Shown here piece by piece: positions 15,091-63,960 of a DNA stretch of 64,000 bases (positions are counted from its first letter, which is position 1; each line of letters starts with the position of its first letter). The stretch is taken from positions 38,874,001 to 38,938,000 of the forward strand of contig OZ024749.1 of the NCBI GenBank assembly GCA_964016885.1, in the 5' to 3' direction. The position numbers were made by a program, and so were the translations under genes. Below the pieces are notes generated by a model. The model was not told the origin of the DNA, made no database searches, and saw only the letters and a list, made by a program, of their open reading frames with translations. The stretch is from Eledone cirrhosa. Taxonomy: Eukaryota.

Positions 15091-15436
15091 TATATATATA
15101 TATATATATGTGTGTATGTGTATGTATGTAAAAGGTAAACAGAAATAACAACACAATCGGTACAATATATGGCAGGTATATATTAGGTTAACGCTTGATA
15201 TAGCAGGAAGAGGGACTTAACGTTTTGGACGCCAGTCCTTCATCAGAAGAAAGAATATATATATATGTGTGTGTGTGGTGTTTGTTTGTATTTATGCATG
15301 TGGTGAGCATGTATGTGGATGTGAGCTGTGTGTCCACATTATATACATATAGAAAATACTGTCTCTCTCTCTCATATTTATATAGAAAGTACTTTTATAA
15401 TTTCCATGTTTGTTTAGAAGTATATATATATATATA

Positions 15437-15807
15437 TAGATAGATAAATATACACGGGTGTGTATGATTGTGTATAGAAGATTATATTAATAAAAGGAAT
15501 TCCAACTTTGTCTGATTTACTCGTTTTATTTACAATCCTTTAAAATTTATAATGGTATTAGAATGAAATAGTATGATAGAATATTAAATGTCAAGTGTTA
15601 ATTGAACCTGAAGATTGCGAAAGCATGAAAGTACTTGTTCAATTAACACTTGACATTTAATATTCTATCATACTATTTCATTATAATACCATTATAAATT
15701 TTAAAGGATTGTAAATAAAACGAGTAAATCAGACAAAGTTGGAATTCCTTTTATTAATATAATCTTCTATACACAATCATACACACCCGTGTATATTTAT
15801 CTATCTA
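15437..15807. repeat. ~171-bp near-perfect inverted repeat with a 29-nt loop
   Basis: Arms 15437-15607 and 15637-15807, one mismatch seen; flanked by (TA)n. Confidence 0.95.
15604..15640 (+). ncRNA. Minimal type I hammerhead ribozyme motif
   Basis: GAAC-CUGAAGA-UUGC GAAA GCAU-GAA-A GUAC U-U-GUUC: core boxes, stem II with GAAA tetraloop (U-U at its base), 1-bp stem III with palindromic GUAC, stem I GAAC/GUUC. Confidence 0.75.
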
Positions 15808-15894
15808 TCTCTCTCATATATATATATATATATTTAAACACTGTCAGCGATTAAAAAGTGATTGATGTTATAAGCGCTCTTTGTTTTCTTTTAC

Positions 15895-15925: not shown

Positions 15926-17070
15926 CTAGCGGCTTCCCGCCTACATTAGTGATCCCCTCTGGCTTCTCAACATTCTCTATTAGATATTTTGTTTAAGTCT
16001 CATTCATTCTCAGCCCCACATTCATCGACACAGTCTCCACCTCCTGCATCAAATCCTCTGCCTCCTTCACTGTATTTGTCACCAAAACTATGTCATCGGC
16101 AAATTCAGCATCTGAAGCCAATGTATCTCCCTGGAGCCAAGCCAATGTATCTCCCTGGAGCACTCCAGCCAGTATCTCAAAGAACTCTGTCATCCCATCA
16201 GGTGTAATGACTTGGGCTTTGGTGTTGGTGTAGAGCAGTGATATCTGGTCCACTATCTTCTTGGGGATTCCATAAGCCTGTAAGATCTTCATCAGGCAGT
16301 GACGGTCCACAGAATCAAAGGCCTACCTAAGTCAATGAAAACCATGACCGCAGGAAGGCACTTTGCTCTAGCTCCCTCTAATATCCTCCTCAGCATCAGG
16401 ATGTGACTGGTGGTTGATCTTTCCTCTCTGAAGCCGTTCTGGTTGTCCCTGAGCTTCTTCTCCATCTCAGGCTGGATCCTGTTAAGAATCATCCTGTTGA
16501 TTGGTTGAGGACTTCCTGTATTTGGGAGCAAAGATTGGGAATACGGAAGATGATGTGGCTGAGAGGAAGAGCAAAGCCTGTTCCGCGTGCCACAGCTTCA
16601 GATCGGTGTGGAAGTCGGACCTTCGTAAAGACCTGAAAATCCGCCTCTTCATTGCTGTAGTGAGGTCTGTGCTGCTGTACGGGTCTGAAACTTGGACACT
16701 GACCAAGAAACTCACACAGATGGTGGATGGGTGCTACACGAGAATGCTGAGGATGGCTCTGAACATTAATCAGTATACACTGAGGATGAAAAACTCAGAG
16801 CTGTATGGGAGCCTCCCAAAAGTCAGCTCAAAAGTGACACAAAGGAGACTGAGGTTAGCTGGACATGCTCACCGACATCCAAAGTTGACATTGCACTCAG
16901 TGTTCCTGTGGGAGCCCCTACATGGACACACTGGAAGAGGAAGACCAAGGTTAATGTATGTTGATGCCCTAAGGACATGTCAGAGATGCAGGACATGGCA
17001 GCGATAATGAGGGACAGAGACCGCTGGAGAGAACTCGTCCATGGATCTCGGGAATTTTACCCGCCCTAGA
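15925..17070. mobile_element. RTE-like LINE with inverted 5' part
   Basis: - strand 16500-15925 holds RT motifs (NQNGFR, GVLQGDTLA, FADD); + strand 16501-17070 holds YLG...LLYGSETW...GRGRPR. Confidence 0.9.
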
Positions 17071-22953: not shown

Positions 22954-25900
22954 TGAAATATATACATATACACCAGGTCTGAACACAAAGGAACCAAACT
23001 CCAGTTGCCCCTGCCTCCATCTCTCCCACTCTCCTCATCTCTCACTATTGTGCTAGTGTGTATCTGTGAAATATATACATATACACCAGGTCTGAACACA
23101 AAGGAACCAAACTCCAGTTGCCTCTGCCTCCATCTCTCCCACTCTCCTCATCTCTCACTATGGTGCTAGTGTGTATCTGTGAAATATATACATATACACC
23201 AGGTCTGAACACAAAGGAACCAAACTCCAGTTGCCCCTGCCTCCATCTCTCCCACTCTCCTCATCTCTCACTATTGTGCTAGTGTGTATCTGTGAAATAT
23301 ATACATATACACCAGGTCTGAACACAAAGGAACCAAACTCCAGTTGCCTCTGCCTCCATCTCTCCCACTCTCCTCATCTCTCACTATGGTGCTAGTGTGT
23401 ATCTGTGAAATATATACATATACACCAGGTCTGAACACAAAGGAACCAAACTCCAGTTGCCCCTGCCTCCATCTCTCCCACTCTCCTCATCTCTCACTAT
23501 GGTGCTAGTGTGTATCTGTGAAATATATACATATACACCAGGTCTGAACACAAAGGAACCAAACTCCAGTTGCCCCTGCCTCCATCTCTCCCACTCTCCT
23601 CATCTCTCACTATGGTGCTAGTGTGTATCTGTGAAATATATACATATACACCAGGTCTGAACACAAAGGAACCAAACTCCAGTTGCCCCTGCCTCCATCT
23701 CTCCCACTCTCCTCATCTCTCACTATGGTGCTAGTGTGTATCTGTGAAATATATACATATACACCAGGTCTGAACACAAAGGAACCAAACTCCAGTTGCC
23801 CCTGCCTCCATCTCTCCCACTCTCCTCATCTCTCACTATGGTGCTAGTGTGTATCTGTGAAATATATACATATACACCAGGTCTGAACACAAAGGAACCA
23901 AACTCCAGTTGCCCCTGCCTCCATCTCTCCCACTCTCCTCATCTCTCACTATGGTGCTAGTGTGTATCTGTGAAATATATACATATACACCAGGTCTGAA
24001 CACAAAGGAACCAAACTCCAGTTGCCCCTGCCTCCATCTCTCCCACTCTCCTCATCTCTCACTATGGTGCTAGTGTGTATCTGTGAAATATATACATATA
24101 CACCAGGTCTGAACACAAAGGAACCAAACTCCAGTTGCCCCTGCCTCCATCTCTCCCACTCTCCTCATCTCTCACTATTGTGCTAGTGTGTATCTGTGAA
24201 ATATATACATATACACCAGGTCTGAACACAAAGGAACCAAACTCCAGTTGCCCCTGCCTCCATCTCTCCCACTCTCCTCATCTCTCACTATGGTGCTAGT
24301 GTGTATCTGTGAAATATATACATATACACCAGGTCTGAACACAAAGGAACCAAACTCCAGTTGCCTCTGCCTCCATCTCTCCCACTCTCCTCATCTCTCA
24401 CTATGGTGCTAGTGTGTATCTGTGAAATATATACATATACACCAGGTCTGAACACAAAGGAACCAAACTCCAGTTGCCCCTGCCTCCATCTCTCCCACTC
24501 TCCTCATCTCTCACTATGGTGCTAGTGTGTATCTGTGAAATATATACATATACACCAGGTCTGAACACAAAGGAACCAAACTCCAGTTGCCTCTGCCTCC
24601 ATCTCTCCCACTCTCCTCATCTCTCACTATGGTGCTAGTGTGTATCTGTGAAATATATACATATACACCAGGTCTGAACACAAAGGAACCAAACTCCAGT
24701 TGCCCCTGCCTCCATCTCTCCCACTCTCCTCATCTCTCACTATGGTGCTAGTGTGTATCTGTGAAATATATACATATACACCAGGTCTGAACACAAAGGA
24801 ACCAAACTCCAGTTGCCTCTGCCTCCATCTCTCCCACTCTCCTCATCTCTCACTATGGTGCTAGTGTGTATCTGTGAAATATATACATATACACCAGGTC
24901 TGAACACAAAGGAACCAAACTCCAGTTGCCCCTGCCTCCATCTCTCCCACTCTCCTCATCTCTCACTATGGTGCTAGTGTGTATCTGTGAAATATATACA
25001 TATACACCAGGTCTGAACACAAAGGAACCAAACTCCAGTTGCCTCTGCCTCCATCTCTCCCACTCTCCTCATCTCTCACTATGGTGCTAGTGTGTATCTG
25101 TGAAATATATACATATACACCAGGTCTGAACACAAAGGAACCAAACTCCAGTTGCCCCTGCCTCCATCTCTCCCACTCTCCTCATCTCTCACTATGGTGC
25201 TAGTGTGTATCTGTGAAATATATACATATACACCAGGTCTGAACACAAAGGAACCAAACTCCAGTTGCCTCTGCCTCCATCTCTCCCACTCTCCTCATCT
25301 CTCACTATGGTGCTAGTGTGTATCTGTGAAATATATACATATACACCAGGTCTGAACACAAAGGAACCAAACTCCAGTTGCCCCTGCCTCCATCTCTCCC
25401 ACTCTCCTCATCTCTCACTATTGTGCTAGTGTGTATCTGTGAAATATATACATATACACCAGGTCTGAACACAAAGGAACCAAACTCCAGTTGCCCCTGC
25501 CTCCATCTCTCCCACTCTCCTCATCTCTCACTATGGTGCTAGTGTGTATCTGTGAAATATATACATATACACCAGGTCTGAACACAAAGGAACCAAACTC
25601 CAGTTGCCTCTGCCTCCATCTCTCCCACTCTCCTCATCTCTCACTATGGTGCTAGTGTGTATCTGTGAAATATATACATATACACCAGGTCTGAACACAA
25701 AGGAACCAAACTCCAGTTGCCTCTGCCTCCATCTCTCCCACTCTCCTCATCTCTCACTATGGTGCTAGTGTGTATCTGTGAAATATATACATATACACCA
25801 GGTCTGAACACAAAGGAACCAAACTCCAGTTGCCTCTGCCTCCATCTCTCCCACTCTCCTCATCTCTCACTATGGTGCTAGTGTGTATCTGTGAAATATA

Positions 25901-28329
25901 TACATATACACCAGGTCTGAACACAAAGGAACCAAACTCCAGTTGCCCCTGCCTCCATCTCTCCCACTCTCCTCATCTCTCACTATGGTGCTAGTGTGTA
26001 TCTGTGAAATATATACATATACACCAGGTCTGAACACAAAGGAACCAAACTCCAGTTGCCCCTGCCTCCATCTCTCCCACTCTCCTCATCTCTCACTATG
26101 GTGCTAGTGTGTATCTGTGAAATATATACATATACACCAGGTCTGAACACAAAGGAACCAAACTCCAGTTGCCTCTGCCTCCATCTCTCCCACTCTCCTC
26201 ATCTCTCACTATGGTGCTAGTGTGTATCTGTGAAATATATACATATACACCAGGTCTGAACACAAAGGAACCAAACTCCAGTTGCCCCTGCCTCCATCTC
26301 TCCCACTCTCCTCATCTCTCACTATGGTGCTAGTGTGTATCTGTGAAATATATACATATACACCAGGTCTGAACACAAAGGAACCAAACTCCAGTTGCCC
26401 CTGCCTCCATCTCTCCCACTCTCCTCATCTCTCACTATTGTGCTAGTGTGTATCTGTGAAATATATACATATACACCAGGTCTGAACACAAAGGAACCAA
26501 ACTCCAGTTGCCCCTGCCTCCATCTCTCCCACTCTCCTCATCTCTCACTATGGTGCTAGTGTGTATCTGTGAAATATATACATATACACCAGGTCTGAAC
26601 ACAAAGGAACCAAACTCCAGTTGCCCCTGCCTCCATCTCTCCCACTCTCCTCATCTCTCACTATTGTGCTAGTGTGTATCTGTGAAATATATACATATAC
26701 ACCAGGTCTGAACACAAAGGAACCAAACTCCAGTTGCCCCTGCCTCCATCTCTCCCACTCTCCTCATCTCTCACTATGGTGCTAGTGTGTATCTGTGAAA
26801 TATATACATATACACCAGGTCTGAACACAAAGGAACCAAACTCCAGTTGCCCCTGCCTCCATCTCTCCCACTCTCCTCATCTCTCACTATTGTGCTAGTG
26901 TGTATCTGTGAAATATATACATATACACCAGGTCTGAACACAAAGGAACCAAACTCCAGTTGCCGCTGCCTCCATCTCTCCCACTCTCCTCATCTCTCAC
27001 TATGGTGCTAGTGTGTATCTGTGAAATATATACATATACACCAGGTCCGAACACAAAGGAACCAAACTCCAGTTGCCTCTGCCTCCATCTCTCCCACTCT
27101 CCTCATCTCTCACTATGGTGCTAGTGTGTATCTGTGAAATATATACATATACACCAGGTCTGAACACAAAGGAACCAAACTCCAGTTGCCCCTGCCTCCA
27201 TCTCTCCCACTCTCCTCATCTCTCACTATGGTGCTAGTGTGTATCTGTGAAATATATACATATACACCAGGTCTGAACACAAAGGAACCAAACTCCAGTT
27301 GCCCCTGCCTCCATCTCTCCCACTCTCCTCATCTCTCACTATGGTGCTAGTGTGTATCTGTGAAATATATACATATACACCAGGTCTGAACACAAAGGAA
27401 CCAAACTCCAGTTGCCCCTGCCTCCATCTCTCCCACTCTCCTCATCTCTCACTATGGTGCTAGTGTGTATCTGTGAAATATATACATATACACCAGGTCC
27501 GAACACAAAGGAACCAAACTCCAGTTGCCTCTGCCTCCATCTCTCCCACTCTCCTCATCTCTCACTATGGTGCTAGTGTGTATCTGTGAAATATATACAT
27601 ATACACCAGGTCTGAACACAAAGGAACCAAACTCCAGTTGCCCCTGCCTCCATCTCTCCCACTCTCCTCATCTCTCACTATGGTGCTAGTGTGTATCTGT
27701 GAAATATATACATATACACCAGGTCTGAACACAAAGGAACCAAACTCCAGTTGCCCCTGCCTCCATCTCTCCCACTCTCCTCATCTCTCACTATGGTGCT
27801 AGTGTGTATCTGTGAAATATATACATATACACCAGGTCCGAACACAAAGGAACCAAACTCCAGTTGCCCCTGCCTCCATCTCTCCCACTCTCCTCATCTC
27901 TCACTATGGTGCTAGTGTGTATCTGTGAAATATATACATATACACCAGGTCCGAACACAAAGGAACCAAACTCCAGTTGCCCCTGCCTCCATCTCTCCCA
28001 CTCTCCTCATCTCTCACTATGGTGCTAGTGTGTATCTGTGAAATATATACATATACACCAGGTCCGAACACAAAGGAACCAAACTCCAGTTGCCCCTGCC
28101 TCCATCTCTCCCACTCTCCTCATCTCTCACTATGGTGCTAGTGTGTATCTGTGAAATATATACATATACACCAGGTCCGAACACAAAGGAACCAAACTCC
28201 AGTTGCCTCTGCCTCCATCTCTCCCACTCTCCTCATCTCTCACTATGGTGCTAGTGTGTATCTGTGAAATATATACATATACACCAGGTCCGAACACAAA
28301 GGAACCAAACTCCCACTGTCGCTGCCTCA
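22954..28329. repeat. 113-bp tandem satellite, about 47.5 copies, in POMGNT1 intron 2
   Basis: CACCAGGTC recurs from 22971 to 28282 (exactly 47 x 113 bp); near-identical units. Confidence 0.97.
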
Positions 28330-30886: not shown

Positions 30887-31355
30887 ATATATATATATAT
30901 AATCTCATCATCACCATCACCATTTTACGTCCATTCTTCCACTCTAGCATGGGTTAGACAGGTTGTCCTGTCGTGGGCAATGCCCAGTCGGCTGACCTTG
31001 TCTTGCTCATACAGGAACTGATTCTGGCTTGATTTCTACAGCTGGATGCCCTTCCTAACACCAACCTCATATACAGTGAGTGTTGGGTGCTTTTTTGCCG
31101 TGGCGCCTACACACCCACTTTACAGTGTGGGCTGGATGCTTTTTTTGCCGTGGCACCTCCACGACCACTTTGCAATGGGAGGGGGTGGGGGAATATTGTC
31201 TATATGCTTCAGCTTATAGGAAAAGAGTCAGGTCAGGCCCCCAACGGCTGAGCTCCGGCCATTTCGACAGCTAGATCCAAACTGTATTGAGTACTCTGGT
31301 GCGTTATGGTCCACCTGTTTTCTTACCACACTTTCTTTGTTATATATATATATAT

Positions 31356-31656
31356 ATAATATATAAGATCAAAAGATGGTTAAAAGAGTTCCATGTATTT
31401 TATTATGCGCATTTCAAAAACAAATATCATCATGCAATAACATTTGCGTTTTCGTCAGATAAAATAGGGAGACATGATATGAAGGTTAAAACACACTTGT
31501 GAATAGGGCAGTTTTAAATCAACATATAAAATACATGGAACTCTTTTAACCATCTTTTGATCTTATATATTATTTATACTCCAGTCCTACAAACTGTAGA
31601 GTGCTTCTTATCCGATATCTGCATTGCTTTATTGTACTACAATAAAACTCACCTCC

Positions 31657-63365: not shown

Positions 63366-63491
63366 GTAGGAGGTGAGTTTTATTGTAGTACAATAAAGCA
63401 ATGCAGATATCGGATAAGAAGCACTCTACAGTTTGTAGGACTGGAGTATACATAATATAAGATCAAAAGATGGTTAAAGGAGTTCCATGTA

Positions 63492-63558
63492 TTTTATTAT
63501 GCGCATTTCAAAAACAAACATCATCATGCAATAATATTTGTGTTTTCATCAGATAAAA
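63492..63558 (-). ncRNA. Type I hammerhead ribozyme motif (family B)
   Basis: UUUUAU-CUGAUGA-[stem II]-GAA-AUGCGCAU-A-AUAAAA. Confidence 0.8.
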
Positions 63559-63797
63559 CAGGAGAACATGATATGAAGGCTAAAAAACACTTGTGGATAG
63601 TGCAGTTTTAAATCAACATATCAATAATCGTTTCGACCCCTGCTTATTAATTTTTCAGATTTGTTCGAATCCCCCCATCCCCACTTATTAATTTTGACTA
63701 TTCTATGTCCGGTAAGATTTCATTTCAAGTGATAATATGTTGATTTAAAACTGCACTATCCACAAGTGTTTTTTAGCCTTCATATCATGTTCTCCTG

Positions 63798-63864
63798 TTT
63801 TATCTGATGAAAACACAAATATTATTGCATGATGATGTTTGTTTTTGAAAAGCGCATAATAAAA
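63798..63864 (+). ncRNA. Type I hammerhead ribozyme motif (family B, inverted copy)
   Basis: Same motif as 63492-63558 with one T>A change in the stem III palindrome (63851). Confidence 0.75.
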
Positions 63865-63896
63865 TACATGGAACTCCTTTAACCATCTTTTGATCT

Positions 63897-63960
<64 letters not shown>

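Follow-up and report, generated by a model that had tools for sequence, protein, structure and literature searches.

A hairpin of two Penelope-like retrotransposon ends with a hammerhead motif as its loop in Eledone cirrhosa

Described Penelope-like elements and the Eledone locus

The closest described systems are EN+ Penelope-like elements (PLEs) with inverted pLTRs, among them Penelope of Drosophila virilis and the Pen families of Adineta vaga (PMC3846280; overview in PMC8557442). The Eledone family resembles them, as far as these sources describe them, in an ORF that joins a reverse transcriptase (RT) to a C-terminal GIY-YIG domain, in strong 5′ truncation, and in a head-to-head inverted copy with a palindromic junction, an optional tail at one end, a TATA/Inr-like pLTR start and microsatellite targets. 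The PLE layout in PMC8557442 comprises inverted 5′-truncated copies, a 30–40-bp tail, a ribozyme in the pLTR and a (TA)n bias, while palindromic junctions have been read as self-priming with an antisense template invoked (PMC3846280) and RT has been placed at two starts, the tail boundaries (PMC11167929). Two further systems are related. Minimal type I hammerheads of metazoan PLE pLTRs and of Anolis PAc share with the Eledone motif the CUGANGA and GAAA boxes, a 5-bp stem I, an undefined loop 1 and a tiny palindromic stem III suited to dimers (PMC4209133, PMC11167929); opposite-strand hammerhead pairs 100–700 bp apart have been noted in Schistosoma (PMC4209133). Non-LTR retrozymes (PMC7229834; 10.64898/2026.07.22.740005) are likewise non-autonomous, hammerhead-bearing and PLE-related, but they are described as head-to-tail tandem arrays with a hammerhead per unit, whereas the Eledone hairpin is a single head-to-head pair.

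The window is the whole stretch of DNA analysed here, 64,000 nucleotides of contig OZ024749.1 from a 3.0-Gb host genome rich in AT and microsatellites. Judged from its sequence, the hairpin in this window consists of two end fragments of an abundant Penelope-like retrotransposon, placed head to head, with a hammerhead motif as the loop. It differs from the described EN+ PLEs in that its junction lies in hammerhead stem I, its left arm is without the core, and both arms carry the tail. In the element numbering used throughout, 0 is the C of CUGA at window position 15608, and the predicted cut falls between +28 and +29. The parts of the locus are as follows.

15421–15435, no strand: left flank, (TA)n target microsatellite; sister copies end in (TA)n/(CT)n
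15436–15607, minus strand: left arm, inverted, 5′-truncated copy of the element 3′ end, +29 to +200; its inner 5 nt (15603–15607) are common to native stem I
15436–15483, minus strand: optional left-arm 'tail' of ~48 nt; most sister arms end at +152
15603–15607, plus strand: TGAAC, the 5′ strand of native stem I and, at the junction of the inversion, a microhomology of 5 nt
15608–15636, plus strand: predicted minimal type I hammerhead core, with CUGAAGA, U·U plus a 3-bp stem II, GAAA, palindromic AGUACU stem III and U17
15636–15637, plus strand: predicted cleavage site after the CUU triplet, where copy 5′ ends cluster family-wide
15637–15808, plus strand: right arm, direct copy of the element 3′ end past the ribozyme, consisting of the stem I 3′ strand (15637–15641), the remainder of the pLTR (to 15760) and the tail (15761–15808)
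15809–15833, no strand: right flank, (CT)n/(TA)n target microsatellite

In the assembly the two 172-bp arms (15436–15607 and 15637–15808) flank a 29-nt spacer and are 99.4% identical, the sole mismatch lying at 15561/15683; the preliminary description had the hairpin, the single mismatch and the loop right and made the arms 1 bp too short, at 171 bp. The locus thus lies within a (TA)n tract and reads first as an inverted copy spanning +29 to +200 and then as a direct copy spanning −5 to +200; a test for target-site duplication found (TA)n at both flanks. The arms had also been described as a direct extension of stem I. They do pair over 172 bp, but native stem I is only 5 bp long (TGAAC/GTTCA), and in other copies the sequence upstream of its TGAAC is unrelated element sequence. 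The cleavage position, 15636/15637, is one that we assume from hammerhead numbering. The right arm begins exactly there, as stated earlier, but this adds no independent support, since by definition the cut site is where the 3′ strand of stem I begins.

The Penelope-like identity of the element, missed at first although the hammerhead loop was recognised, emerges from its copies in the genome. A 27-nt core pattern has 6,065 exact genome matches and a control none, and the hairpin arm matches at least dozens of loci at 86–99% identity. In long copies, an ORF upstream of the core encodes the RT motif YLDD, a linker of the form CX4CxxC and a two-cysteine motif resembling GIY-YIG, so arranged that the RT and then the C-terminal GIY-YIG occur in the same element (frames upstream of the core in L031–L034). 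The direct Pfam match of the ORF to GIY-YIG is weak (E 9e-4, below the cut-off). The ORF has 169 longer homologues at E≤1e-10, proteins of 705–817 aa with E down to 1e-150 and a best identity of 60% among those listed; each of the 120 listed of the 169 has PF00078 and/or PF01541, or else PF28514/PF26215, the companion families. L031 contains CNDSRCGTC and LIYCIKCPNCEQLYVGQ and agrees with the Neptune/Nematis definition, so that the element is probably of Neptune/Nematis type by its linker motif rather than by a tree. Elements of this type (CX2-5CxxC linker; PMC8557442) have in common with it a CX4CxxC before a GIY-YIG with two internal cysteines and a (TA)n bias. Loci L032 and L034 contain, upstream of the copies, long RT-endonuclease ORFs from another Penelope-like family that is only distantly related, one frame being 713 aa without a stop; BLASTP against the second RT-EN ORF, nested in L032, gives a distant relation only.

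The pLTR follows the ORF in L003, L010, L015, L025 and L026 and stands ahead of the ORF N-terminus in L110, L115 and L171, where the end continues past the microsatellite into a shared stretch. L115 has the pLTR, the tail and a downstream stretch common to L110, and it contains the ORF N-terminus. Because L110, L115 and L171 run from the core-bearing end toward the ORF, with L115 reaching its N-terminus, this end is the pLTR. At positions 1690–1720 of L110 the tail and an internal microsatellite are followed by a pyrimidine-rich stretch that ends in TAG just before the ORF ATG. This may be the 3′ splice site of an intron in the 5′ UTR, such as other Penelope-like elements have. Arms in the family end at +152/153 or ~48 nt further, at the optional tail, which is slightly above the published 30–40 bp; sequencing-run pieces matched to the flagged locus have loose ends at 15483. 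Inverted 5′-truncated copies adjoin the 5′ end in 94 head-to-head pairs among the fetched loci and in 582 exact palindromes.

Elsewhere in the window, a near-perfect inverted repeat at 63447–63909 (175-bp arms, 99%, 113-nt spacer) also ends in (TA)n; a motif scan found no hammerhead core in it, and its arm also matches 31341–31527 at 91%. Positions 22954–28313 contain 47 tandem copies of a 113-bp unit that are 99% identical.

The hammerhead motif and its possible transcript

The spacer parses as had been proposed, with the boxes in place and no leftover bases: CUGAAGA (15608–15614), U (15615), a 3-bp stem II (15616–15618/15623–15625) closed by a GAAA loop, U (15626), GAA (15627–15629), A-GUAC-U (15630–15635) and U17 (15636). 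The CUGANGA and GAAA boxes, U16.1-H17 and stem I of a minimal type I hammerhead are all present, RNA folding of the hairpin recovers stems I and II, and core boxes at both ends arise in 2 of 200,000 shuffles of the 29-mer. Conservation of the core in homologous copies, named earlier as a check, is borne out at 95–100% per position in 74 copies. The highly conserved, though not absolute, G10.1–C11.1 pair is absent, both positions being U in 99% of these copies, so the U-U noted as a caveat is real but family-wide and no defect of one copy. On account of this U·U base of stem II we file the core as a non-canonical variant of the minimal type I hammerhead, and the same feature together with U at position 17 makes its activity uncertain. 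The Eledone core thus differs from the minimal type I hammerheads described for PLEs in its 3-bp stem II, U·U in place of G10.1–C11.1, and U17. The stem III palindrome, AAGUACUU, self-pairs over 8 bp (−8.8 kcal/mol), which makes a dimer possible. An Rfam scan of the window (E≤1, 142 matches) gave no hammerhead family; its matches are miRNA families driven by microsatellites or hairpins, which stay below the gathering score, and a single marginal tRNA.

A second, unrelated hammerhead-like motif lies 360 bp from the hairpin at 15215–15251 on the minus strand, with CUGAUGA, an extra A, a GGAC/GUCC stem II with a G-C base, and AAAA replacing GAAA. The repeat around it is another one of high copy number and probably represents a different Penelope-like family.

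The preliminary description proposed that the locus, if transcribed, would give a functional self-opening long dsRNA feeding ADAR or Dicer. A transcript would indeed form a duplex of 172 bp whose loop contains the core, but we regard such a function as very improbable. The flagged copy, truncated at −5, is without the TATA and start region and hence without a promoter, and no gene is evident at 13–19 kb of the window besides degraded LINE-type frames. These frames, on the minus strand at ~15990–16800, adjoin the hairpin and encode a reverse transcriptase that we take to be RTE-like. Stem III has 1–2 bp and needs a partner, as only a dimer can provide; after a cut the two halves would remain paired over 172 bp with a 29-nt overhang; and nothing singles out this hairpin among hundreds of sister hairpins. 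Runs recorded or guessed as RNA contain no more than 0.05 of the query words in what was a weak search. In the published assays, moreover, a single minimal hammerhead does not cleave in vitro and dimers do so weakly (PMC4209133), and the Anolis PAc hammerhead needs protein (PMC11167929).

Inversion axes and the origin of the hairpin

We assign a probability of about 0.68 to the reading that the hairpin consists of 5′-truncated PLE 3′ ends placed head to head by cDNA fold-back on stem I during retrotransposition. Reverse transcription would start at +152 or at ~+200 (the tail) and run toward the RNA 5′ end; at the flagged locus the first-strand cDNA would have stopped just past the hammerhead. 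The cDNA 3′ end would then fold back and prime on itself with 1–5 bp, here the 5-bp stem I, and the hairpin cDNA would later be resolved into an inverted repeat. Most fold-backs in the family would have formed at the likely transcription start (−44/−42) and a second group at the predicted cut (+27 to +33), which would make the flagged locus a rare premature stop on uncleaved RNA. The hairpin itself is likely an inert by-product and not a regulatory RNA.

The distribution of inversion axes places this junction within its family. An exact 25-nt palindrome centred on the A at −42, that is, 42 nt upstream of the core, occurs at no fewer than 582 loci, and among 30 unselected core-bearing copies the 5′ end lies at −46 to −33 in 18, beyond −75 in 9 and elsewhere in 3. 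TATATAA stands at −75 to −69, 31 nt above −44, a spacing from which −44/−42 is likely the transcription start. An upstream control yields 68 loci, mostly with one arm toward the start zone (50 listed, judged by eye). The stem-I inversion, by comparison, is found at 2 loci in the genome with a 25-nt junction pattern at ≤2 mismatches, the flagged one and L126. A shorter junction pattern meets native upstream sequence in 13 of its 14 exact matches, and none of 16 inspected among its 118 one-mismatch matches is a stem-I fold-back. With 2 loci against at least 582 at −42 and ~120 at the cut site, the earlier suggestion that inverted repeats are born through stem I is not supported, and stem I is rejected as an inversion hot spot; the junction is a rare variant of a known retroelement structure.

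L126 has the same stem-I junction, carries mutations of its own and is tailed on just one of its arms. An assembly or chimeric-read artefact at the flagged locus would fit the fact that no listed contig or read (X1, X2 and X4 contigs; X21 RAD reads) spans the junction, yet it is scarcely credible, because the symmetry ends at the element 3′ end on both sides with differing flanks, unlike read fold-back chimeras, a second locus has the junction, and the unique left flank (15292–15411) is matched without differences in run X1. The arms also differ at one site by a natural allele. Elsewhere, the head-to-head pair of L006 (G000:C20 ~10.6166 Mb) stays symmetrical into its two flanks, which are identical, and L014 forms a perfect palindrome of 2.2 kb; both may be larger fold-backs or assembly artefacts.

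The junction sequence of the flagged hairpin is equally explained by a later deletion between TGAAC repeats in a longer palindrome or by two annealing cDNAs. Under the first alternative, which we consider unlikely, an ordinary −42-centred palindrome formed first, and an asymmetric deletion between TGAAC direct repeats in the inverted arm and in native stem I later took out ~110 nt of the centre, so that the core became the loop. Long perfect palindromes are prone to deletion, palindromes at −42 outnumber every other form by a wide margin, asymmetric junctions with one arm in the −30 to −44 zone are frequent in the 68 upstream loci (by eye, 50 listed), and the 5-nt microhomology fits. Such a history is opposed by the 99.4% identity of the arms, which implies that little time has elapsed, by the asymmetry that the removed piece would need, and by the recurrence of the same junction at the independent locus L126.

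Whether the arms share a template was addressed by comparing alleles within the 94 head-to-head pairs, of which 86 were scored and 8 dropped for fewer than 60 shared sites. Subfamily differences per arm pair average 0.59 in the 32 pairs reaching the start zone, 0.27 in 11 intermediate pairs and 0.09 in 43 near the cut, versus 3.03 subfamily-diagnostic differences between random copies. This supports descent of the two arms of a locus from one template, or their later homogenisation, and it rules out two different donor RNAs as a general rule; two RNAs from a single donor, or gene conversion at a later time, could produce the same sharing. The general idea of snap-back self-copying, already advanced in the preliminary description, gives the best account of the arms' origin, as arms share subfamily alleles within loci. 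At the flagged hairpin itself the arms disagree at one of the 8 polymorphic sites from +44 to +150. This mismatch, at the family-polymorphic site +75 that also differs in 4 other pairs, slightly favours two templates, and the tail on both arms speaks against self-copying here.

Two templates are what a second, distinctly improbable alternative invokes. Two cDNAs from two target nicks would have been joined, one from ribozyme-cleaved RNA (ending at +29 in TGAAC-3′) annealing to the stem I complement of a cDNA from uncleaved RNA, and ribozyme cleavage would then set the left-arm start. In keeping with it, arms that start exactly at +29 recur, including one in L028 joined at −12 without microhomology; both arms are tailed here, as in only 3 of the 86 pairs; the sole mismatch is a family polymorphism; and the Anolis PLE protein is a predicted dimer that cuts both strands (PMC11167929). 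It is weakened by the general finding that the two arms of a locus resemble each other much more closely than random copies do, and the microhomology masks the true breakpoint. Fold-back of a single cDNA on stem I stays our preferred account of the hairpin.

Copy ends at the predicted cleavage site

A gapped genome search found 158 short-spacer fold-backs near the ribozyme. In the 50 that head the list, the start of the longer arm lies at +27 to +33 in 38, at +11 to +25 in 7 and at +35 to +42 in 5, one of the last being an arm walk stopped early by an indel; 38 of 50 scales to ~120 of the 158 (95% range 98–137). A downstream control of the same width gives 48 loci with 23 in its best 7-nt window, which lies at a palindrome, five-fold fewer. 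Of the 31 loci with both arms reaching +30 (classified by eye), 18 have the start of the longer arm at +27 to +30, 7 have it at the stem III palindrome (+21) and 6 have it elsewhere; both arms stop exactly at +29 in 4, of which 2 are without a spacer. Solo ends against (TA)n, among the matches listed for part of the genome, fall at +27 to +39 in 13 of 15 and at +3 to +26 in 2, a tally in which TA microhomology inflates +33 to +38 and from which one further locus is set apart.

Junctions with other sequences have a similar position. A four-mismatch junction test at +29 returned 18 matches, 12 of them independent once 3 internal deletions and 3 duplicates are removed (L110 and L115 among the 12 are 99% alike), while the same test at +19 returned 7 matches with 1 true junction. 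The partners at +29 include an SSU rRNA fragment (L124) and the element's own ORF (L117), as would be expected of template jumps from an RNA 5′ end. At L124 (G000:C28:80903154-80906187) the eukaryotic SSU rRNA fragment is joined directly to +29, likely by a template jump from a cleaved RNA end. L110/L111 (G000:C3 ~222.07 Mb) contain an 845-nt unit running from +29 into the ORF N-terminus, followed in L110 by another +29 start; L115 (G000:C4 ~311.39 Mb) has a 99%-identical piece of this unit, inverted relative to the rest of the ORF.

Microhomology shapes individual peaks, as at the stem III palindrome (7 of 31 loci) and at +72/+73 in the control (14 of 48). As the sole cause of the cluster it is insufficient, since mean priming potential does not single out +27 to +33 (3.1 bp, versus 2.7 at +4 to +26, 3.3 at +60 to +95 and 5 at stem I). 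Other readings deserve weight. RT may have stalled at a folded or protein-bound ribozyme, in line with the largest single class of fold-back ends (14 of 50), which lies at +31, two bases short of the predicted cut. A second initiator-like start at +31 to +33 may also produce the cluster, as may ascertainment, given that exact-match anchors favour young copies and that the 7-nt window was picked after the data had been viewed. The simplest reading is that cleaved 3′ products were reverse-transcribed. The copy ends at the predicted cut suggest ribozyme cleavage in vivo, activity being indicated indirectly, by ends of genomic copies. For Anolis PAc, by contrast, RNA ends were reported absent at the cut site (PMC11167929), whereas in the Eledone family genomic junctions cluster there.

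Taken over the whole family, we lean slightly toward viewing the head-to-head repeats as fossils of cDNA fold-back, whose axes map the transcription start (−44/−42) and germ-line cleavage by a non-canonical hammerhead, with the cleaved 3′ product integrated. The flagged locus would then be a rare read-through of uncleaved RNA. PMC3846280 proposes antisense self-priming; the Eledone axes, at a likely start and a predicted cut, fit cDNA fold-back on a sense template instead. The element type, the pLTR ribozyme, the inverted arrangement and self-priming are already in print; in the passages covered by a literature search, no report was found that links inversion axes or truncation points to the start site and the ribozyme cut.

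As one of two rare junctions in a family of thousands of copies, the single hairpin is of little consequence. The pattern across the family is relevant to in vivo cutting by minimal PLE hammerheads, for which PMC4209133 offers no evidence and whose function PMC8557442 calls unclear, and to the origin of head-to-head inverted pLTRs. A table of inversion axes and truncation points relative to the ribozyme costs little to compile, in this or any other PLE-rich genome, and the pattern yields sharp predictions for 5′-end mapping and in vitro work. If the reading is true, it would provide genome-scale in vivo evidence for cleavage by a PLE ribozyme, and an antisense template would no longer be needed to explain head-to-head PLE repeats.
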